A stretch of 64,000 bases of DNA from an uncultured Chryseobacterium sp. (GTDB lineage Bacteria > Bacteroidota > Bacteroidia > Flavobacteriales_F > PHOS-HE28). Below are positions 22,459 to 64,000 of the stretch, in pieces. The notes under the pieces are model-generated. The model made no database searches and was not told the DNA's origin. It saw only the letters and a program-made list of their open reading frames with translations. Position 1 is the stretch's first letter. Each line of letters starts with the position of its first letter. The DNA lies in assembly GCA_964649165.1 (NCBI GenBank), contig CAZYPC010000001.1:31529-95528 (forward strand), given 5' to 3'. The position numbers were made by a program, and so were the translations under genes.

Positions 22459-25400
22459 ATGCCCTCCGACTACAACCTGCTGATCGAGAAGCTGGATGCC
22501 TTCATCCGGAAGTACTACAAGGACCGCCTGATCCGCGGGGCCTTGTACAGCACAGGCCTGCTCGTGCTCTTCTTTCTGGGCGCATCGCTCAGCGAGTACT
22601 TCGGGCGCTTCGGCACCACGGCGCGCACGGTGTTGTTCTGGGGCTTCCTCTTCGTGGCCGCTGGCGTGTTGGCGCGCTTCATCGTTTTCCCCCTGGTGAA
22701 GCTGTTCCACCTCGGTAAAGTGATCTCGCATGACGAGGCCGCGAACATCGTGGGCCAGCACTTCCGCGAGGTGAAGGACAAGCTGCTGAACACGCTGCAA
22801 CTCCGCGAGCAGGCCAACAGCAACTTCGTGAATCGTGAACTCATCGAGGCCAGCATCGCGCAGCGCAGTCGCGAACTCTCTCCTGTCCCCTTCGCGGCGG
22901 CGATCGACTTCTCGAAGAACCGCAAGTACCTGCGCTACGCCCTGCCTCCCCTGGCGGTGCTCATCATCCTGCTCTTCGCCGCGCCCAGCCTGATCACCGA
23001 CCCGGCGAACCGCATCATCAAACACGGCAAGGAGTTCGCGCCCGACGCGCCGTTCCGCTTCATCGTGCTCGACAGCAACCTCACGGTTCCCGAGCAGGAG
23101 GACTTCGAGCTGCATGTGGCCATCACCGGTGAGTTCGTGCCGCAACTGGTGGAACTCGATATCAACGGGCAGCGCATACCGCTGGTGAAACAGGACGCCG
23201 CGCATTTCACCCATCGCTTCCGGAATGTGCAGCAGGCCATCGACTTCAAGCTCACGGCCGAGGGTTTCTACAGCGATGGCTACACGCTCAACGCCGTGAG
23301 CAACCCCATGCTCACCGACCTCGCGCTGCGGTTGGAGTACCCGCCCTACCTCGGCATGGCGAACACCAGCACGAACGGCAACGGCGACGTCACCGTGCCG
23401 GTGGGAACCCGCATCACCTGGACCGCCACCACGCGCAGCACGGACGAACTGCTGCTCGCTTTTGACGACACCACCTTCGCCCTGCAGCCACAAGGCGACA
23501 ATGCCTTCCTGTCGTCGCGCCGCTTCCTGCAGAGCCGCACCTACACGCTCGTGCCGCGCAAAGGAGACCGGGTCGCGCAGCACCCGCTGCAATACCGCGT
23601 GGATGTGGTGCCCGATCTCTACCCTACCATCCTCGTGGAGCAGAAGACCGACAGCACCTCTCCGAAGCGTCTCTACTTCAAGGGCGATGTCGCCGACGAC
23701 CATGGCTTCGCCAAACTGGTCTTCCACTACGGCTTCTCCGAGGGTGGCGACAGCGTGATGACCGATCGACGCGAGCGCACGCAAGAGCTCACCATCGACC
23801 GGAAGAACACGCGCCAGGAGTTCTTCCACTATTGGGACCTGAGCGACCTGCGCTTGCTGCCCGGCGACAAGCTCGAGTACTGGTTCGAGGTGTGGGACAA
23901 CGACGGCGTACACGGCAGCAAGAGCGCCCGCAGTGGCACGCAAGTTTTCGAAGCTCCCACGTTGAAGGAACTGGCCGACAAGCAGGACGCGCAGAACGAA
24001 GTGGTAAAGGACCAGTTGAAGGAGAGCATCAAGGATGCCCAGGAACTGCAGCGCGAACTGGACAAGATGCGTCGCGACATGCTGGACAAGAAGGAGCTGA
24101 ACTGGCAGGACAAACAGAAGCTCGAGAACGTGATGCAGAAGCAGAAGGAACTGCAGCAACGCATCGAGAAGACCACCGAGCAGTTCAAACAGAACAACCA
24201 GGAGCAGCAGAGCTTCAAGGAAATGGACGAGCGCCTGCTCCAGAAGCAACAGCAGGTGCAGGAGCTCTTCGAGAACGTGTTGAGCGAGGAGATGAAGAAG
24301 CTCTACGAGGAGGTGCAGAAGCTCATGGAGCAGATGAACAAGGAGGACCTCCAGCAGAAGATGGAGGATATGAAGATGAGCCAGGAGGACATCGAGAAGG
24401 AGCTCGACCGCGCCATGGAACAGTTCAAGCGCATGGAGGTGGAACAGAAGGCCGAGGACATCGCCGACCAGCTGGAGGACCTTGCCGAGAAACAGAAGGA
24501 ACTGTCCGAGGAAACGAAGAACGAGAAAGGCGACAACAGCGAACAGCAGAAGAAGCAGGAGGAGCTTAACAAGGAATTCGAGGACATCCGCAAGCAGCTG
24601 GACGAGCTGGAGCAGAAGAACAGCGAGTTGGAAACCCCGGTGGAACTGCCCAAGACCGATGAGCAGGAGCAGGAGATCCAGAAGGAGCAGGAGGGCAGCC
24701 AGCAGGACATGCAGCAGAAGGAGAACCAGAAGGCCGGCGAGAAACAGCAGAAGGCCGGGGAACAGATGGAGCAGATGGCCTTCCAGATGAAGAGCGCCAT
24801 GGGCGCCAATGAGCAGGAGCAACAGGAGGAGGACATGGACGCGCTGCGTCAGCTGTTGGAGAACATCGTGGAATTGAGCTTCGACCAGGAGGCCGCACTG
24901 AACGACCTGGGCCGCACCGCCGCGAAAGACCCCCACCTGGTGGACATCGGCCGGCAGCAGAAGAAGATGCGCGACGACGCCAAGGTGATCGAGGACTCGC
25001 TCTTCGCCCTCAGCAAGCGCGTTCCGCAGTTGCAGGCGGCCGTGAACCGCGAGATGAACGCCGTTAACGAGAACATGGACCAGGCCATGGAGCACCTGGC
25101 CATCAGTCGCGCCGATATGCGCGGCAAGCCCCAGGCGGCGGACAAACAGCAGCGCGCCATGACCGGACTCAACAACCTGGCGCTCCTGCTGGACGAGGCG
25201 CTGCAACAGATGCAGCAACAACAACAGCAGAGCGGCATGCCAGGCAGCGGCAAATGCAACAAGCCCGGCGGAAGCGGCAGCAGCAGCGGTGACAGCAAGA
25301 AGATGGCCAAGACCAAGGCCAACCAACAGGCCTTGAGCAAGCAGTTGGAAGAGATGAAGAAGGCCCTGGAGAAGAACGGCAAGAAGCCCGGGGGAAAGCC

Positions 25401-25896
25401 CGGCCAGAAGCCGGGAGAGAAGCCCGGGGCCGATGGTAAACCCGGCGGCATGGGGCTGCCCGGCATGAGCCAGCAGCTCGCCCAACTCGCTGCACAACAA
25501 GCCGCCATCCGCAAGGAGATGCAAAGGGCCGCCCAGGAATTGAACAAGGATGGCAGCGGCGCAGGGCAGCCCCTGCAAAAGCTGGCCGAGGAGATGGAGA
25601 AGAACGAGAAGGACATCGTGAACCGCAACATCACGCAGGAAACGCTGAAGCGCCAGCAGGACATCATGGTGCGCCTGCTGGAGGCCGAGAAGAGCGAGCG
25701 CGAGCGCGAACTCGACAACAAACGCGAGAGCAACGAGGGTCGCGAAACGCCCCACGCGGACCCCGCCCGCTTCTTCGAGTACCAGCGCAACAAGCAGCGC
25801 GAGGCCGAACTTTTACGAACAGTACCCCCGGGATTGAAGCCGTACTACAAGGCCAGGGTGGCGGAGTATTTCGATACTTTTGACCGACCCCGATAA
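22459..25896 (+). CDS. DUF4175-like large membrane-anchored coiled-coil protein
   Basis: N-terminus YNLLIEKLDAFIRKYYKDRLIRGALY followed by two TM helices, as I recall for DUF4175. The central region of about 600 aa is Q/E/K-rich coiled coil. Confidence 0.7.
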   Translation: MPSDYNLLIEKLDAFIRKYYKDRLIRGALYSTGLLVLFFLGASLSEYFGRFGTTARTVLFWGFLFVAAGVLARFIVFPLVKLFHLGKVISHDEAANIVGQHFREVKDKLLNTLQLREQANSNFVNRELIEASIAQRSRELSPVPFAAAIDFSKNRKYLRYALPPLAVLIILLFAAPSLITDPANRIIKHGKEFAPDAPFRFIVLDSNLTVPEQEDFELHVAITGEFVPQLVELDINGQRIPLVKQDAAHFTHRFRNVQQAIDFKLTAEGFYSDGYTLNAVSNPMLTDLALRLEYPPYLGMANTSTNGNGDVTVPVGTRITWTATTRSTDELLLAFDDTTFALQPQGDNAFLSSRRFLQSRTYTLVPRKGDRVAQHPLQYRVDVVPDLYPTILVEQKTDSTSPKRLYFKGDVADDHGFAKLVFHYGFSEGGDSVMTDRRERTQELTIDRKNTRQEFFHYWDLSDLRLLPGDKLEYWFEVWDNDGVHGSKSARSGTQVFEAPTLKELADKQDAQNEVVKDQLKESIKDAQELQRELDKMRRDMLDKKELNWQDKQKLENVMQKQKELQQRIEKTTEQFKQNNQEQQSFKEMDERLLQKQQQVQELFENVLSEEMKKLYEEVQKLMEQMNKEDLQQKMEDMKMSQEDIEKELDRAMEQFKRMEVEQKAEDIADQLEDLAEKQKELSEETKNEKGDNSEQQKKQEELNKEFEDIRKQLDELEQKNSELETPVELPKTDEQEQEIQKEQEGSQQDMQQKENQKAGEKQQKAGEQMEQMAFQMKSAMGANEQEQQEEDMDALRQLLENIVELSFDQEAALNDLGRTAAKDPHLVDIGRQQKKMRDDAKVIEDSLFALSKRVPQLQAAVNREMNAVNENMDQAMEHLAISRADMRGKPQAADKQQRAMTGLNNLALLLDEALQQMQQQQQQSGMPGSGKCNKPGGSGSSSGDSKKMAKTKANQQALSKQLEEMKKALEKNGKKPGGKPGQKPGEKPGADGKPGGMGLPGMSQQLAQLAAQQAAIRKEMQRAAQELNKDGSGAGQPLQKLAEEMEKNEKDIVNRNITQETLKRQQDIMVRLLEAEKSERERELDNKRESNEGRETPHADPARFFEYQRNKQREAELLRTVPPGLKPYYKARVAEYFDTFDRPR

Positions 25897-56430: not shown

Positions 56431-57063
56431 TCAGCCTTCGTGTTTCGCCAGCGCTGGCACGATGATCAAGCCGGTGGCCACTTCGCCGAAGGCCACCACG
56501 GGCGCACCAGTGGCGGCCAGGTACGCGGTACGGGCGCAGAGCGCGGCGTCCACGCAATCGATGTTGGTGAGCTCCGACTGGTCGATCCCCAGCAGCTCGA
56601 GCAGCGCGCGGCGCTGCGCGCGTTTGCGCTTTGCATTGGCGTTGCCGCCGCGTAGGTGCCATGTGATGGCGTGCGGAAAGGTCTCGAAGCAATAGCGCTC
56701 CCGACCGGGTGCTGTGGGGTCGCGCACAGGATGCGTGGGCGCGAGCGCATCATACAGCGCCATGCCGTTCCGCATCCAATCGTAGTGCTTCTTGGGATGG
56801 GCAATGGCGCCGGCTTCCGTGGGCGAGGAGAAGCACCAGATGTGTTTCTGCATCAGCGCATGCTCGGCGGGCCGCCCCCGGCCCGTGGTGCTCCAGGCGC
56901 AGGGCGCGTCGATGGCGATCACGGCGGCATCCATCTCCTCCAGGCACCAACGCACCAGCGCGCTTATGTCCGTATCGGCCTTCTTCGCGCGGTAGCGGCC
57001 GCCCTCCAGCGCCACGGCGTGGAAGCCCTTGCTGCGGCCACCGACATCGATGCCGATGACCAT
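56431..57063 (-). CDS. DUF429 (RNase-H-like fold) protein
   Basis: Start reset to MVIGIDVGGRSKGFHAVAL... followed by AVIAIDAPCAW and DAALCARTAYL, the DUF429 layout as I recall it. Confidence 0.6.
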   Translation of the reverse strand: MVIGIDVGGRSKGFHAVALEGGRYRAKKADTDISALVRWCLEEMDAAVIAIDAPCAWSTTGRGRPAEHALMQKHIWCFSSPTEAGAIAHPKKHYDWMRNGMALYDALAPTHPVRDPTAPGRERYCFETFPHAITWHLRGGNANAKRKRAQRRALLELLGIDQSELTNIDCVDAALCARTAYLAATGAPVVAFGEVATGLIIVPALAKHEG

Positions 57064-57177
57064 GGGGGATGTGCGCGAAGTGGAAGTGAGCATGGTTCCT
57101 GGGCCGAAGATGTCCCACCTATTGGCAGATGCGTAGGACGATCGCTCCAAGGAGGGGTAAGTCCTTTTCGTGCAGGG

Positions 57178-59322
57178 CTAGCCGTTTTGCGATGGACGTA
57201 TGCCAAGCTCGTTCATCACCTCTTTCGCTGCGATCGTGCCTTGATCGTTCATCCGAAACTCCACGAACAGGCTTCGGAGATGCTTTGATACCTCGTTCAG
57301 GTCATCGCCCATCGTGAAGACCTTGGGGTCCCCCACGACAATGAGCTTTTGTTTGGCCCTGCTTATGGCCACATTCACCAAGCGCTCACCCGTGTTGCCC
57401 TTGTAGAGCTGACCGATGCGCCGCTCGCTGCTGTCCACCACATCCCAGACGATGACGTCGTATTCCGAGCCCTGAAAGGAGTGGATGGTGCCCACCTTGA
57501 TGCGTTCCAGGTCCTCCTTGGTGAGCATGCTGGCGTTGAGCAATGCCTGAATGCTCTGCACCTGTCCGTTGTACGGTGCAACTACACCGATGCTCACTGT
57601 TGCATGTGAGCGAACCAGACGTTGCACCAATGCTGCGACGAGTTCGGCCGAGGCAGTGTTGCGCCGCGAGCGGGTCTCCGTGACGGACACACGCGAACCA
57701 TCCTGCGGCCCGAAGTGGATGAAGTTGACCGGCCCCTCCGGAAGGAAATCGACATCGAGCAAGTGCAAGCCTTCACGCTCCACCTTGGAGGTGAGCCGAT
57801 GGTCATAGAATCGCTCGTTGATCAACGCACAGATCGCCTCGTCCATGCGGTGCTGCTCGTTGAGCATCACCAGCCCTTGTTCCTTATAGGCGGGCACGTC
57901 GGCGAGGTAGGTGAAGATGTCCGTGGCGAACCAATTGCGCGCGGCTTCGGTAGCGCTCACGCAGATGGGGCCTAGCTGTTTGAAGTCACCAGTGATCACC
58001 AGCTTGTCGCGGGTGAAGAGGCCCATGGCGATGGTCTGTACCAGCGGCATCATGCTCACTTCGTCGATGATGAGCACGTCGAACTGCTGCGGTTGGAACG
58101 CATCGCTCAGAAAGCACATGGCCGAGGTGGTGAGCGTGACGCTCGCCTCGCGCACGCGGGCCTCGTTCGCCTTCTTCAAGAGCTTGCGCAACTCCACCAC
58201 CTTGTCCTGTAGCTCGGCGCGCAACTCGGGCTTGTTTTCCGGTGCGCGCGCCAGAGCCGCTTGCGCCTTTCCTAGTTCGCGGCGCAGGGTGATGATGTGC
58301 TCCTTGTCCGGGAACAAGCGGTCGTCCTCGTTGATCTCGGCCATGGCCGGGTAGCCGAAGCGCAGCACCTTTCGCGCATCGAGCAACTCGCGCGTTTCGG
58401 GAATACGTTCCATTTCCTTCACCACCGCGCGTGTCAGGTGATCCACGGCGATGTTGGAGATGCCAGAGGCCAGCACCTTGCGCCCTTGTGCCGCTGCGCG
58501 CGCAATGATCTTGGCCAGCGTGAAGGTCTTGCCCGTTCCCGGCGGACCCCAGATGAAGGTCTGGTCCTGGCCGAAGACCCGTTCCATCACCGCCCGTTGC
58601 GGCTCGTTCACATCGGGATCCACGATGCTGACGGAGCCGTTGGATGCGCGCACAAGGTCCCGGCGTTCGAAGAGCCGAGCAGCCGCCGAGTCCGGGTGGT
58701 TGGGTATCTGCTCGAACTGCTGCTGGATGCGCCGGAGGAAATCGATGGGGTGCGTGCGGAAACGGAAGCGCGCGGCTATCTGCTCAGGTGATAGCGCAAC
58801 CTTCGCCCTGAAGATGATGATGGAAGTGCGGTTGTAGTAAGCCAACAACACTCCACTGGCGGCACCGGCCTCGGGTAACTCCGGCCACCAGAGGTCGATG
58901 GGCAGGCCTTCCTGCCCAGGTGCGGCCAAGCCATCAGGCAAGGAGATCACCGCCTCGTACATGTGGCCTGCCGTGTTCTCCTTGAGCAAGCGCAGCACCT
59001 TGGCCACGATCCAATTCTTGCGGTGGTCCTGCTCCACGGCGGTCTTCTCGTCGTGGAAGGCCTTGCGCACTTCTTCCTCGGGCAAACTGCTCAGGTCGAA
59101 GCTGCTGGGGAAGTCGCGCGTGAGCTTGCGCCAATCCGGCCGACGCAGGTGGCTACCGATGGGTTTGAAGTAATCGTTGTAGTCCTCCAGGCATTGCGCC
59201 ACTACTTCACCATCCAGGTGGTCGCGATGCAGCAGGTTCTTCAGCTGCACGGCCGTGTAGTCCCGCTCCCGATGGTCGAGCTCGTACCACTTCTGGATGA
59301 TCTTGTGGAAGAGGACCTGCAT
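57178..59322 (-). CDS. Upf1-like superfamily-1 helicase (AAA_11/AAA_12 type) with unknown 270-aa N-terminal domain
   Basis: Helicase motifs present: NEPQRAV (Q), WGPPGTGKTF (I), LIIDEVSMM (II), VITGDFKQLGP (III), TIHSFQGSEYDVIV (V), NVAISRAKQKLIVVGD (VI). Confidence 0.85.
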   Translation of the reverse strand: MQVLFHKIIQKWYELDHRERDYTAVQLKNLLHRDHLDGEVVAQCLEDYNDYFKPIGSHLRRPDWRKLTRDFPSSFDLSSLPEEEVRKAFHDEKTAVEQDHRKNWIVAKVLRLLKENTAGHMYEAVISLPDGLAAPGQEGLPIDLWWPELPEAGAASGVLLAYYNRTSIIIFRAKVALSPEQIAARFRFRTHPIDFLRRIQQQFEQIPNHPDSAAARLFERRDLVRASNGSVSIVDPDVNEPQRAVMERVFGQDQTFIWGPPGTGKTFTLAKIIARAAAQGRKVLASGISNIAVDHLTRAVVKEMERIPETRELLDARKVLRFGYPAMAEINEDDRLFPDKEHIITLRRELGKAQAALARAPENKPELRAELQDKVVELRKLLKKANEARVREASVTLTTSAMCFLSDAFQPQQFDVLIIDEVSMMPLVQTIAMGLFTRDKLVITGDFKQLGPICVSATEAARNWFATDIFTYLADVPAYKEQGLVMLNEQHRMDEAICALINERFYDHRLTSKVEREGLHLLDVDFLPEGPVNFIHFGPQDGSRVSVTETRSRRNTASAELVAALVQRLVRSHATVSIGVVAPYNGQVQSIQALLNASMLTKEDLERIKVGTIHSFQGSEYDVIVWDVVDSSERRIGQLYKGNTGERLVNVAISRAKQKLIVVGDPKVFTMGDDLNEVSKHLRSLFVEFRMNDQGTIAAKEVMNELGIRPSQNG

Positions 59323-59357
59323 CCTGGTGTTGCGCTATTCCATCGGGGTAGGTCGGT

Positions 59358-59810
59358 TCAGAACTCGAACAACTCCATAAGGTCCGTCACGACCTGCAGA
59401 TCCGCCTTCTTGACCATACACTTGCCGGGATGCTCCTTGCGGGGCGCCCGAGCCAAAGCGCGTACCCGGCCTTCGCGAGAAAGCGCGCGGTAGGTGATGG
59501 TGGGTGGCTCGGCTGTGTAATCCACTTGCGCCACCACCACCTGGCTGCGCTTCTGCAACAGCGCCTTGTGCACATCCCAGGCATCGGTAGAGCCGCCGTA
59601 GGCCTTGAGCTGCATCAAGAGGAACTCATCACGGTCATCGAGACCCAGGATGATGTCGAAGCCATAGAGGTCTATGTCCGAACGGCCGATGAGCGGGGTC
59701 TTGCCACGCCGGGTGACAGCCAGGATGAAATCGCGGATGAACCACGACTCCACCAAACTCTCTTGGATCGTGGAACGCGAGGGGTCCTGGAAATAGGTCT
59801 TGAGCGACAT
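59358..59810 (-). CDS. Hypothetical 150-aa protein, possible restriction-endonuclease-fold (D...D...QxK)
   Basis: ESLVESWFIRDF...GRSDIDLYGFDIILGLDDRDEFLLMQLKAY resembles a PD-(D/E)xK core with Q in place of D/E. Its stop is 35 nt upstream of the helicase ATG. The fold assignment is an inference. Confidence 0.5.
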   Translation of the reverse strand: MSLKTYFQDPSRSTIQESLVESWFIRDFILAVTRRGKTPLIGRSDIDLYGFDIILGLDDRDEFLLMQLKAYGGSTDAWDVHKALLQKRSQVVVAQVDYTAEPPTITYRALSREGRVRALARAPRKEHPGKCMVKKADLQVVTDLMELFEF

Positions 59811-59870
59811 TGGTTTGGTGCTCGTTCAACAGGTGTACACCGGGCGTTGGATGGACATGCAAGCTCCCTT

Positions 59871-60683
59871 CTAATTGGAATTGTACCCGTGCTCCCTGCT
59901 GCGCAGAAGGTTCTTCCAATGACTTTCGCGCGCACCGATCTGCTCGTCCGAAGCTCGCGAATCGGCGATCTCCAGTATCGAGAACTGGAAGTTGGTCAAA
60001 TACTCCGGTGGGTGTGCCCCGAGCAACTCTCGCAATTCCTTGTTGCCGCCGTGACCGGTCCAGACATAGGTGCACCACCGCTGCCACAAGCCGCTTTCGC
60101 CATCGGCCTTGCCCACGTAGTGCTTGCCGTTCAGCATGTCGGTGATCAGGTAGACCCCCTTCACGTTGCTCAATGCAGACTTCCAGCTTGCTACTTCCTG
60201 CTCCACGATCGTCTTCAGCTTGGGGTAAGGGACCGTTGTCCAGTTGAACCCTGGAAATTCCTCAATGGTCAGCTTCTTCTCGCGGATCTCGCTCAGTGTG
60301 AACGCGCTGCCGTCCTCGTGCCCCCAGAGGTAAGCCGCGCGTCCACCGCGTTCGTGGTGGACGACCAAACGGCCGATCCACATCTCGTGGCCGGTAACCA
60401 GTTCGGTCTTGTAGCGATACAGCTTCTTTTCCTCCAGCCAATCGTGGCCAAGCACCTTGTACACCCCAGCGAACAGCCACTTGTTCCGCTCTGGCAGCTT
60501 GATCAAGCTCACGATATGGTTGCACGGCCAGTTGCGTTGCCGCTGCCACTCCTGCCACTCCTGGAACCAGCCCGCGAAGAATGCGTCCAGTGGTGGGTCT
60601 ATGTCCGACGTGGCCAAGTGAAGCTTGTAGTTCTTCAGGTCCAACGGAACCTGATTGGCAAGCAGGAAGTCAACGAGCTTCAT
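59871..60683 (-). CDS. GIY-YIG nuclease with uncharacterised 170-aa N-terminal domain
   Basis: C-terminal VKGVYLITDMLNGKHYVGKADGESGLWQRW...FQFSILEIAD...ARESHWKNLL matches GIY...YVG...R...E...N of the GIY-YIG fold. Confidence 0.8.
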   Translation of the reverse strand: MKLVDFLLANQVPLDLKNYKLHLATSDIDPPLDAFFAGWFQEWQEWQRQRNWPCNHIVSLIKLPERNKWLFAGVYKVLGHDWLEEKKLYRYKTELVTGHEMWIGRLVVHHERGGRAAYLWGHEDGSAFTLSEIREKKLTIEEFPGFNWTTVPYPKLKTIVEQEVASWKSALSNVKGVYLITDMLNGKHYVGKADGESGLWQRWCTYVWTGHGGNKELRELLGAHPPEYLTNFQFSILEIADSRASDEQIGARESHWKNLLRSREHGYNSN

Positions 60684-60741: not shown

Positions 60742-61698
60742 CTAGTCGGAAATGGGCTCCAGACCGATCAACAGGAAACTCACTTTCCCCGTATCCTCGG
60801 TTTCGTCCGGTGTCTCAACGATCTCTTGAATGGTCGCGCGCACACGCTGATTCCAATGGACCGCAACCAACTTCTGCACCACTTCTTCGGCAATGTCACC
60901 AATGATCGGCTCGCCTCCCGTTCGCAACTCGAACCTCTTCTTGGACGTGCTGCCCCCTACAAGTTCCCCCTCAATGACCCGGGGTTCCTTCGGTTTGAGA
61001 ACGATCGTATCGAGCCACGCCTTACGGTCTCGCGCCTGTGCAGCTTTCAAACGAACTCCGGCGCGACGGGTCTGCGTCCGCATGACGATCTGCGCATTGT
61101 TGTCGCCTATCTCTTCAACGAGCTTCTTGTAATGGCTCTTGATGCGCGAAGAGGTCTTGAAGATGGAAAGCAGGTCGTCCGTGGTGCCCTCGGGATCAAG
61201 CAAACGACCGAGCACCGCCATCACTTCATTCGGGTCGTAGGCCCGCACACGTTGAAGCTCCTCACTCGTTGCGAAGCGGAACTTGATGCCAAAAGAAGAG
61301 TCGAACCCACCAGCAATGAGCAGACGACTCTCCTCCAATACGATGTTCGGTACAGCGGCACGCGGCGTGGGCTTGCCGAATGATTGGGTAATAGCGTCCA
61401 CAAGGGACTGGGTCGTTGCCAATACGCGACCAAGAAAGCCTGCCTGGATATCGTGGCCCACCACCGGGTCGCCGTCCAAACTGAACACCACATCGCTATT
61501 CTCCAGTTCATAAGCGATCGATGTCTCGAGCTCTGCCTCCAGGTCTTTCAAGTGGCCCTGCCATGCATCCCATTGCAACTGGGCGGCGAAATCATCCTTG
61601 AGTGCAGAGCCTTCATTCGGAAGCGTTGCTTTGAACTGCTCCAACTGGGCCTCCACCTCGGATGAGGGCCGCGGTATGTGAAGCTCTTCAGTGCGCAT
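60742..61698 (-). CDS. Hypothetical 318-aa protein
   Basis: An uninterrupted ORF. Its ATG (61698) lies 11 nt inside the upstream ORF (stop at 61688). No recognisable motif. Confidence 0.6.
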   Translation of the reverse strand: MRTEELHIPRPSSEVEAQLEQFKATLPNEGSALKDDFAAQLQWDAWQGHLKDLEAELETSIAYELENSDVVFSLDGDPVVGHDIQAGFLGRVLATTQSLVDAITQSFGKPTPRAAVPNIVLEESRLLIAGGFDSSFGIKFRFATSEELQRVRAYDPNEVMAVLGRLLDPEGTTDDLLSIFKTSSRIKSHYKKLVEEIGDNNAQIVMRTQTRRAGVRLKAAQARDRKAWLDTIVLKPKEPRVIEGELVGGSTSKKRFELRTGGEPIIGDIAEEVVQKLVAVHWNQRVRATIQEIVETPDETEDTGKVSFLLIGLEPISD

Positions 61699-62260: not shown

Positions 62261-64000
62261 TCAAGATAGGTCGGTTTCGGACTCCTTCACGACCGCCTTC
62301 CTCTTCCCACTCCCCTCCACTATAGCTATCTCCTCCTCCGTAAGCCCATACAGCCCATACACCACCTGGTCTATCTCCTGCTCCACCGCCAAGGCCGCAG
62401 GCCCAGCCTCCATCCCCAGCCGCTTCTTGACCAACCGGACTAGTTTGGAGTCACGCGCCGCATTTGGCTTCGGAAGTGGCAACTGAGCAACAGATCTGGC
62501 TTGAATCTCACTGAACACCTTCTTTGTTGACTTAAGGAAGGTCGAGTAGTAGTAGTTCCACAGCTTCGAATTGAACAAGGCTAGAACCCATTCTGGTTGG
62601 CGTTCGACATCCTCATTCAAGTTGATCGCCACTAGGGTGTTCAGGGCATAGTACTGCTGTTCGTCGATGGCAGCCATTAGACTGGATGACACCCTGCGGA
62701 AGAAAATCTTCTTCGCGGAAAGAAAGATGTCCTCTCGCTTACAACTATGAATCGCCTCTACATCGTAGCGCAGGTAGTTTCCTGCCCACGAGATGCCGTA
62801 ACGATGAACCTCACGACCATCAAGCACGGGCTTGTAGTTCTTACCCTTCGCCTTCTCAAAGAGATGTGCTGCGCGATCACCCTTAAGTGCTATGGCTTGA
62901 TTGATTGAGCTTATCTCACCAAGCGTGCCCGAAGAACGGTCGTCGATTGATTTCTTAAGGTCCCGACCAGCGCTGTCCTGCAACACAGAGAATCGCAGTA
63001 GGTCGTCGTTGGCGAATTCACTTCTGGGTGTCGTGGTGGTCGTCCATTGGTAGTCGCCGGAGAATGCCGTGACCTTTAGCGATTCGGTTGGCTCTTTGAC
63101 TCGCTCGAGGAATAAGGACACGGTTTCCACAACGGCATCTTCAAATGGGAGCTTTTCATACGTCACTATTTCAGAGACTTGGGTGTGCTCCAGAATGAAC
63201 TTGCGTAGCTGGTGATAATACTCTTGCGTGAGGATTGTGTTGGGAACGATATATGACAGCACTCCTCCGGTGGCAAGCAGACGAGCACCACTCTCGATGA
63301 AGAAACCGAACGTGTTCATCCTACCCATGGACGAACTATAGTTGGCAAGCAGGTACTTCCGCTGTGCGCTGTCGAACCAGTCATACATCGCCAGTTGAAC
63401 GTACGGTGGATTGCCAATAACCACGCTAAATCCGCTACTGAGCCCATACATCCACTCCGGATCGAAGAAGGGCGCGCTGGCGTTCTGGTCGTAGGGGTCC
63501 CAAGCGGCCAGCATGCGTGCGGTCTTGGGCTGTAGCTCATGGTCCTGCACCAGCAGCTCGGCCAGTTGTTCGCGCAGCACCTTGTCCTGCTGGCGGCACT
63601 TCTCCTTGCGCTGCGGGGTGCGCGCCTCGAAGTAGTCATGCCGCACGCGCTTCAGCTGCGTCTTCTTCTGCTCGATGGCCGGGTTGGTGAACAGGTTGTC
63701 GTGTTCCTTCTCCAATTTCATGAGCGTATTGGCCGCCACGAACTTGGTCTCCAAATTGGGCAGGGCGCGCACGCCGCGGTTGGGCCGCGCGTCTGCCACG
63801 CGCTGGTCCACCACCAAGCTGATGAAGAAGCGCAATTTGGCGATCTGCATGGCGATGGGCTGGATGTCCACGCCGTAGATGCCGTTCTCGATCAGGTAGA
63901 GCTTGCGGCCGTAGTCCAGCGCATTGTGCTCAAAGGCATCCTCGATGTCGGCGACGGTGCGCTCTCGGATATCGGCATCGTCCAACTGTGCGGCCTTTTC
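62261..64000 (-). CDS. Eco57I/PglX-like N6-adenine DNA methyltransferase (COG1002 type), N-terminus outside window
   Basis: The frame stays open to base 64000; the listed M at 63985 is a TTG. YGVDIQPIAMQIAKLRFFISLVVDQ, catalytic VIGNPPYVQL, a TaqI-like C-terminal specificity region, and the typical tail VVYGLYGLTEEEIAIVEG. Confidence 0.85.
   Translation of the reverse strand, partial: EKAAQLDDADIRERTVADIEDAFEHNALDYGRKLYLIENGIYGVDIQPIAMQIAKLRFFISLVVDQRVADARPNRGVRALPNLETKFVAANTLMKLEKEHDNLFTNPAIEQKKTQLKRVRHDYFEARTPQRKEKCRQQDKVLREQLAELLVQDHELQPKTARMLAAWDPYDQNASAPFFDPEWMYGLSSGFSVVIGNPPYVQLAMYDWFDSAQRKYLLANYSSSMGRMNTFGFFIESGARLLATGGVLSYIVPNTILTQEYYHQLRKFILEHTQVSEIVTYEKLPFEDAVVETVSLFLERVKEPTESLKVTAFSGDYQWTTTTTPRSEFANDDLLRFSVLQDSAGRDLKKSIDDRSSGTLGEISSINQAIALKGDRAAHLFEKAKGKNYKPVLDGREVHRYGISWAGNYLRYDVEAIHSCKREDIFLSAKKIFFRRVSSSLMAAIDEQQYYALNTLVAINLNEDVERQPEWVLALFNSKLWNYYYSTFLKSTKKVFSEIQARSVAQLPLPKPNAARDSKLVRLVKKRLGMEAGPAALAVEQEIDQVVYGLYGLTEEEIAIVEGSGKRKAVVKESETDLS

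Follow-up and report, generated by a model that had tools for sequence, protein, structure and literature searches.

The stretch of DNA analysed here, called the window throughout, is a 64,000-nucleotide (nt) segment of contig CAZYPC010000001.1 from an uncultured Chryseobacterium sp. The gene row under study occupies its last 8 kb, lies entirely on the minus strand (Table 1), and forms the distal portion of a defence island belonging to a high-GC Flavobacteriales genome. It includes three consecutive genes, which encode a 270-amino-acid (aa) GIY-YIG protein, a small protein of 150 aa, and an Upf1-like superfamily 1 (SF1) helicase of 714 aa. An earlier note, made from the sequence of the window, had placed these three genes next to one another with a gap of 60 nt between the first two and of 35 nt between the small gene and the helicase, all of which is exact, and had proposed that they form a single split helicase-nuclease module. 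Identical copies of the three-gene stretch were found on independent metagenome contigs of the same organism, and the three are real, conserved genes. The comparison of the three proteins and of their relatives' neighbourhoods, described below, suggests that they are rather more probably separate functional units lying side by side in a defence island, and not one machine.

Table 1. Genes of the row at the end of the window, with the matches on which each description rests (database matches with expect values).
Feature	Position in window	Strand	Basis
Eco57I/TaqI_C-type (type IIG-like) methyltransferase, C-terminal part	62261-64000	-	Pfam Eco57I 2.6e-31, TaqI_C 5.1e-23; PADLOC REase_MTase_IIG 8.6e-43
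DUF6932 protein, 184 aa	61688-62242	-	Pfam DUF6932 3.9e-27; PADLOC PDC-M63A 3.1e-22
318-aa protein	60742-61698	-	Weak PDC-M63B match 3.4e-3; phrog_18731 2.9e-7
UzuA-family GIY-YIG protein, 270 aa	59871-60683	-	PADLOC UzuA profiles
Small protein, 150 aa, PD-(D/E)xK nuclease-like fold	59358-59810	-	AlphaFold2 model and Foldseek
Upf1-like SF1 helicase, 714 aa	57178-59322	-	Pfam AAA_11, AAA_12
DUF429 protein	56431-57150	-	Pfam DUF429 2.1e-24; PADLOC candidate PDC-S44 9e-15

The 270-aa protein was matched by the PADLOC UzuA profile PDLC03973 with an expect value (E) of 3.2e-62, its residues 39-270 aligning to profile positions 42-278 of 278; a second UzuA profile matched at 1.2e-42, and phrog_26160 gave a full-length match (1.5e-55). 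The protein consists of an N-terminal domain of ~170 aa and a C-terminal GIY-YIG nuclease domain. The latter was recognised by the Pfam GIY-YIG model at residues 175-268 with a score under the gathering score (E = 6.9e-4), the NCBIfam model of group I intron endonucleases matched the protein at 1.3e-7, and the GIY-YIG signature is complete (GVY at 176, YVG at 189, R202, E253 and N267). Uzume is named in the literature among the single-gene systems with a GIY-YIG domain. Full-length UzuA homologues, 38-42% identical to the 270-aa protein, were present in 431 plasmid records, the hosts of which include Klebsiella, Enterobacter, Bacillus, Pseudomonas and Alteromonas. Three of these plasmid contexts were opened: the downstream genes were on the opposite strand in all three and the upstream genes in two, and neither an SF1 helicase nor a small nuclease adjoined the UzuA homologue in any of the three.

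By its sequence, the 270-aa protein is UzuA, a member of the known one-gene Uzume system; the profile matches, the single-gene listing in the literature and the plasmid contexts together place it in a known, self-sufficient family. Its description as a GIY-YIG protein was confirmed, while the suggestion that it represents a new type of effector was not, and the N-terminal domain that had been regarded as unassigned belongs to the architecture of the UzuA family. The window member differs from its plasmid homologues in being only ~38-42% identical to them and in lying in a Bacteroidota island, packed tightly against its neighbours; protection against phages is a prediction in its case. UzuA would act alone, its N-terminal domain presumably recognising a target or trigger and its GIY-YIG domain cutting nucleic acid.

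The small protein carries the motifs SDIDLYGFDIIL at residue 44 and LLMQLKA at residue 64, and the D..D..QxK string that had been read from its sequence is indeed present. Nothing meaningful was found for it in Pfam, PADLOC, NCBIfam, PHROGs or the PDB sequences; the PDB sequence matches were designed SAKe proteins, aligned over 33 residues, and were judged spurious. The family is rare: a word-indexed search gave 7 clusters, and a search of 1.84 billion proteins only 69 cluster representatives with E < 1e-3. When 33 members with identities as low as 22% were aligned, D47, G50 and K69 were invariant, and E17, E21, D52, Q67, W78 and H81 were conserved in at least 90% of the sequences. The AlphaFold2 model obtained with this alignment had a predicted local distance difference test (pLDDT) score of 93 and a predicted template modelling score (pTM) of 0.86. 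It comprises helices at 10-33 and 82-86 and strands at 39-43, 53-57, 63-71 and 77-81, with an extra short C-terminal beta/alpha part at residues about 89-150. In this model E17 and E21 lie on the long helix 1, D52 opens strand 2, and Q67-x-K69 is located on strand 3.

When the model was compared with the PDB by Foldseek, the top matches were all PD-(D/E)xK nucleases (SPARDA DREN, Hjc, EcoRV, HincII and I-Ssp6803I), with E starting at 8e-4 (reaching 1e-2 for DREN and Hjc) and template modelling scores (TM-scores) of 0.4-0.5. A viral fold library returned Holliday-junction resolvases and PD(D/E)XK proteins, and distant relatives of about 240 aa matched Pfam PDDEXK_5 weakly. The confident model, with its alpha-beta-beta-beta-alpha-beta core, and the fold matches thus support the nuclease fold and signature implied when the protein was called restriction endonuclease (REase)-like. 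As modelled, the small protein founds an undescribed PD-(D/E)xK nuclease family with an Hjc/DREN-like core, in which, judging from the alignment, Q67 takes the place of the usual acidic residue of (D/E)xK. The order of residues is the same as in Hjc and in SPARDA DREN (DUF4365), namely a Glu on helix 1, an Asp on strand 2 and (E/Q)xK on strand 3; unlike these proteins, to which it is only 12-15% identical at the above TM-scores, the small protein has the Gln substitution and the C-terminal beta/alpha part, and no Pfam family was detected for it. Its fold and conserved residues suggest that it is most likely an oligomeric, Mg-dependent DNA endonuclease working alone, with branched or invading DNA as its possible substrate.

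The loci of small-protein relatives were searched with an 11-sequence subset, the 33-sequence alignment being too diverse for this use. Relatives 69% identical to the window protein (L001-L005 and L024) were followed by an unrelated 191-aa protein and preceded by Lactamase_B-like or unknown genes. One relative of 68% (L025) had a UDG-like gene as neighbour, and those at 62% (L026) and 55% (L016) had McrC/McrB directly upstream, while a relative of 34% (L013) faced a convergent McrBC. More distant members adjoined an Exo_endo_phos gene (L028 and L029, 29%), HSDR_N and HEPN_Swt1 genes (L030, 28%) or glutamate synthase (L017 and L032, 26%). The small protein travels through defence islands beside many different partners. 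A common upstream partner of the small gene was considered and rejected, as the upstream proteins of L001, L005, L022, L025, L026 and the window are mutually dissimilar.

The McrBC genes adjoin small-protein relatives in three loci (L026:1-1526, L016:4218-8428 and L013:7980-12319), an association that recurs at least as often as the pairing with the helicase; the small gene of L026 and the end of mcrC share 4 nt. At L016:8001-8428 the homologue of the small protein is spread over three reading frames and the adjoining mcrC is also fragmented, which reflects either a decaying locus or insertion-deletion errors in a metagenome-assembled genome (MAG) built from long reads. In two of the loci with the 191-aa protein, L001:10001-11190 and L005:5156-6233, the small protein is 93% and the downstream 191-aa protein 92% identical, and the flanks differ. 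Only 14 members of the 191-aa family could be detected, with no domain match. The possibility that the 191-aa protein is a free-standing version of the helicase N-domain was rejected: BLASTP gave E = 2 and a hidden Markov model (HMM) of the N-domain E = 3.7, an HMM of the 191-aa family (15 sequences) met the helicase at E = 1.2, and no member was present in any helicase locus.

The helicase contains the SF1 motifs I (GPPGTGKT at 259), Ia (SNIAVD at 289), II (IIDEVSM at 418), III (GDFKQLGP at 445), V (TIHSFQGSE at 612) and VI (VAISRAK at 651) in the expected spacing, and was matched by Pfam AAA_11 (1.4e-26) and AAA_12 (1.5e-35); no nuclease domain was detected in it by Pfam, NCBIfam or PADLOC. 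Its relatives among the PDB sequences were Upf1 (6e-27), IGHMBP2 (5e-26), DNA2 and Sen1, with E ranging to 1e-11, and the NCBIfam model TIGR00376 (IGHMBP2) matched at 2e-56, far below its cutoff. These data agree with the earlier description of an Upf1-like helicase with all SF1 motifs and no fused nuclease. About 37 full-length relatives of ~700 aa and 45-89% identity were found in Flavobacteriia. They form one group of 77-89% identity from high-GC Flavobacteriales MAGs and another of 45-48% from Algibacter, Formosa, Mariniflexile, Lacinutrix and Gelidibacter. Because its distribution is sparse, the family is unlike a housekeeping gene, and the view that the helicase is other than the housekeeping RecD/Dna2 type is upheld. 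Judged by sequence, it is a rare, patchy family, new and uncharacterised within the well-known Upf1-like class.

Across the helicase family, conservation is high in the N-terminal 235 residues. A model of this region (pLDDT 70.6) displays a helical module, then a long helix and a beta-rich region, with strands at 104-190 and flanking helices. It matched parts of the IGHMBP2, Upf1 and Senataxin chains with probabilities of 0.95-1.0, at low TM-scores and from a model of only the above pLDDT, and returned no nuclease fold matches. The sequence alignment of the helicase with the Upf1 core starts only at residue 236 (chain residue 178). As far as a model of moderate confidence can indicate, the 1B barrel and stalk of the Upf1-type class probably make up much of the N-terminus, which would leave the first about 60-100 residues as a helical module specific to this family. 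The large N-terminal domain of the helicase that had been noted as unassigned is therefore, for the greater part, probably the N-terminal region common to the Upf1 family. Unlike Upf1, IGHMBP2, Senataxin and DNA2, its best relatives of solved structure, the helicase has no CH domain, R3H domain or DNA2-type nuclease domain. It is predicted to be an ATP-driven translocase on single-stranded nucleic acid, with the 5'-3' polarity expected from its family, and would carry a small N-terminal recognition module of its own. A phage origin was dismissed, as scans of viral contigs returned relatives neither for the small protein nor for the N-domain of the helicase; plasmid carriage was likewise dismissed, since no plasmid relatives were found for the small protein and plasmid matches to the helicase covered the core only, at about 30% identity.

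The neighbourhoods of the helicase relatives are also diverse. In L010 (helicase 81% identical) a methylase, the helicase and a DUF429 gene follow one another with none between; in L011, L018 and L037 (77%) the helicase is preceded at a distance of 35-36 nt by a HEPN_AbiU2 gene, itself located behind GmrSD and other cargo; and in L021 (82%) the order is Mrr, an unknown 192-aa gene and the helicase. Among the more distant relatives, the helicase of L012 (48%) follows hsdR, and those of L019 and L020 (45-47%) are solitary among metabolic or housekeeping genes, with both flanks on the opposite strand in L020. The helicase is a single gene in several Flavobacteriaceae and elsewhere stands at the 3' end of restriction-modification (RM) or defence rows. 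A DUF429 gene directly after the helicase, as in the window, was seen in L010 (66% amino-acid identity) and is absent from that place in the other helicase loci.

At the DNA level, L010, L011, L018, L021 and L037 become homologous to the window within 1-3 nt of the start codon of the helicase. A large Eco57I-type methylase is conserved together with the helicase in the window, L011, L018 and L037. Between the window and L011, amino-acid identity is 81% for the methylase and 77% for the helicase, and the intervening cargo is entirely different; the window methylase aligns to the C-terminal half of an L011 protein of at least 1179 aa. In the window the slot between the two genes holds the DUF6932/318-aa pair, UzuA and the small nuclease. 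It is empty in L010, contains PDDEXK_4 or a 411-aa gene and then EC042_2821, GmrSD and AbiU2 in L011 and L037, and contains AAA_23, GmrSD, a 504-aa gene and AbiU2 in L018. The simplest reading is that the methylase and the helicase frame a slot of variable cargo, which looks like a cassette hot spot. In L011 the last ~54 nt of the methylase are repeated (87%) just after its stop codon (L011:3013-3066, compared with window 62296-62349), and this repeat may be a footprint left by a cassette that inserted at the gene's 3' end. The HEPN_AbiU2 genes before the helicase (L011:7386-7964, L018:7312-7965 and L037:5746-6393) correspond in position to the window's small nuclease, which could be either a coincidence or the mark of a swappable nuclease partner.

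UzuA was absent near the helicase relatives in 10 other contexts and near the small-protein relatives in about 17, and the trio was confined to contigs identical in sequence to the window. The module proposed in the earlier note, in which all three proteins make up one split helicase-nuclease system with two effectors, agrees with the adjacent, same-strand arrangement and short gaps of the trio and with the presence of identical copies on several metagenome contigs from this organism. However, UzuA is missing from every other locus examined that has a helicase or small-protein relative, the gene upstream of the other two in L022 encodes an unrelated 377-aa protein, and UzuA is a known single-gene system whose three plasmid homologues lack such neighbours. 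As the three genes are not syntenic in relatives, a three-gene module is not supported, and we consider it most improbable. The arrangement of three independent units side by side accommodates these results better, yet several observations concerning the small gene and the helicase weigh against it. In L022 the closest relatives of both (84% identity for the small protein and 89% for the helicase) are adjacent, and in L023 the same small protein as in L022 adjoins the start of the helicase. The homology between the window and L022 is one 2,569-nt block of 82% DNA identity (window 59812-57247), spanning from 2 nt before the ATG of the small gene to near the end of the helicase, with different genes downstream as well as upstream; L022 has 1 nt between the two genes and the window 35 nt. 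Such a block looks like a mobile two-gene unit, moved or kept together. In addition, a helicase with no effector domain is unusual as a stand-alone defence gene and may for that reason need a partner in trans, and the contexts compared, about 10 for the helicase and about 17 for the small protein, lie mostly on short contigs.

One possible explanation for the shared block is a two-gene module, i.e. a split nuclease-helicase defence system made up of the small PD-(D/E)xK protein and the Upf1-like helicase, with UzuA as a mere neighbour; by analogy, intermediates of phage replication or recombination would be the loading sites of the helicase, which would license the small nuclease or feed DNA to it. 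The precise preservation of the 2.57-kb block amid unrelated flanks, seen again in L023, speaks for such a module, as do the short gaps, with no terminator-like site between the genes, a helicase without an effector of its own, the conserved putative catalytic residues of the small protein, and the precedents in the literature for systems of separate nuclease and helicase. Against it, 7 of the 9 other helicase contexts, including relatives at 77-82% identity and solitary orthologues, have no small gene, and about 15 of the 17 small-protein contexts have no helicase of this family. The pairing is limited to one shallow clade, so that recent common descent could explain it, and the block also fits a recent chance adjacency inherited within that clade while the island turned over. 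Since both families are otherwise found apart, a functional pair is possible but doubtful, and the proposal that the two genes constitute an undescribed two-gene defence system moving as a 2.6-kb cassette is to be regarded as rather unlikely. In a stronger version, the helicase family may be a generic adaptor for whichever small nuclease lies immediately upstream, PD-(D/E)xK in the window and L022 and HEPN_AbiU2 in L011, L018 and L037. An additional scenario is that the helicase serves as an accessory translocase of the RM genes upstream, UzuA and the small nuclease being later insertions into that operon. The helicase does lie downstream of an RM row on the same strand in several loci (a type IIG-like methylase in the window, L010, L011, L018 and L037; type I in L012), hsdR and the helicase gene overlap by a single base in L012, and the methylase and helicase are directly adjacent in L010. 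Nevertheless, the RM systems near the helicase are of different types or families (the L010 methylase and that of the window gave no match at E < 1e-3), no RM gene lies within 8 kb of the helicase in L019 and L020, and L022 has no methylase in the available 1.3 kb upstream. RM operons are, moreover, known landing sites for unrelated defence genes, and we regard a role of the helicase in RM as improbable. We therefore retain as the preferred reading three separate units, of which UzuA was already known, and the small protein, as a family of the PD-(D/E)xK superfamily, and the helicase, as a family of the Upf1-like class, are new. Tight same-strand adjacency in a defence island is no evidence of a common mechanism, and one of the three genes here is already a named one-gene system.

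The helicase was also compared with known helicase-based defence systems. Its best PADLOC defence profile was MkoA (2.7e-60), MkoC matched at 2.9e-34, both over the helicase core only, and it shares with Mokosh the Upf1-like AAA_11/AAA_12 class. Unlike Mokosh type I, it matches only profile positions 616-1082 of 1112 and has none of the ~600-aa N-terminal half of MkoA; there is no fused phospholipase D (PLD) domain as in MkoC, and no PLD or MkoB match was found among the seven proteins of the island. The helicase is not Mokosh. In the literature, Hachiman (HamA nuclease and HamB helicase), Gabija (GajA and GajB) and Nhi follow a nuclease-helicase logic, and the window genes would resemble them, if the pair is real, in coupling a PD-(D/E)xK-type nuclease to a helicase that senses replication intermediates. 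For the small protein, no DUF1837/HamA or GajA match was found in Pfam or PADLOC. HamB belongs to superfamily 2 and GajB is UvrD-like, whereas the window helicase is of the SF1 Upf1-like class and was matched by the GajB profiles weakly (best 4e-8, over part of the protein). In Nhi the nuclease and the SF1 helicase are fused, and in the window they are separate; in contrast to all three systems, the pairing of small protein and helicase occurs only in the closest relatives. Should the two cooperate, the helicase would engage phage replication intermediates and then activate or feed the nuclease, as in Hachiman, Gabija or Nhi, and the pair would add an SF1B/Upf1-type variant to the nuclease-plus-helicase immunity represented by Hachiman, Gabija, Nhi and Druantia.

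Two leads for the discovery of defence genes in Bacteroidota follow from this locus: a rare, unannotated 150-aa PD-(D/E)xK family that recurs beside McrBC, helicases and other defence genes, and a sporadic, nuclease-less Upf1-like helicase family whose gene delimits a slot of variable cargo next to a type IIG methylase.

Across the gene row as a whole, the G+C content drops from about 0.62-0.67 to 0.555-0.58. Although a TTG at 63985 is its nominal start, the methylase reading frame continues up to the final base of the window, so the gene is cut by the window edge and is not a short one; the methylase is also the conserved upstream limit of the island. The genes of the DUF6932 protein and of the 318-aa protein overlap by 11 nt and are probably a PDC-M63-like, uncharacterised two-gene defence or toxin-antitoxin-like pair. 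The DUF429 gene begins 27 nt downstream of the helicase, and past it lie secreted proteins with type IX secretion system (T9SS) tails, typical of Bacteroidota; the related locus L010 also has Por_Secre_tail domains. A scan of the minus strand for sigma-70 promoters and terminators returned nothing in the gaps, including no terminator-like site between the small gene and the helicase, and is of little use here because Bacteroidota promoters differ from the sigma-70 consensus. Elsewhere in the window, a 1145-aa open reading frame (ORF) on the plus strand (22459-25896) is situated in a region of very strong AT skew, up to 0.49, and holds short imperfect repeats of 18-24 nt rich in GAG/AAG codons; its product is probably a long Glu/Lys-rich low-complexity or coiled-coil protein.

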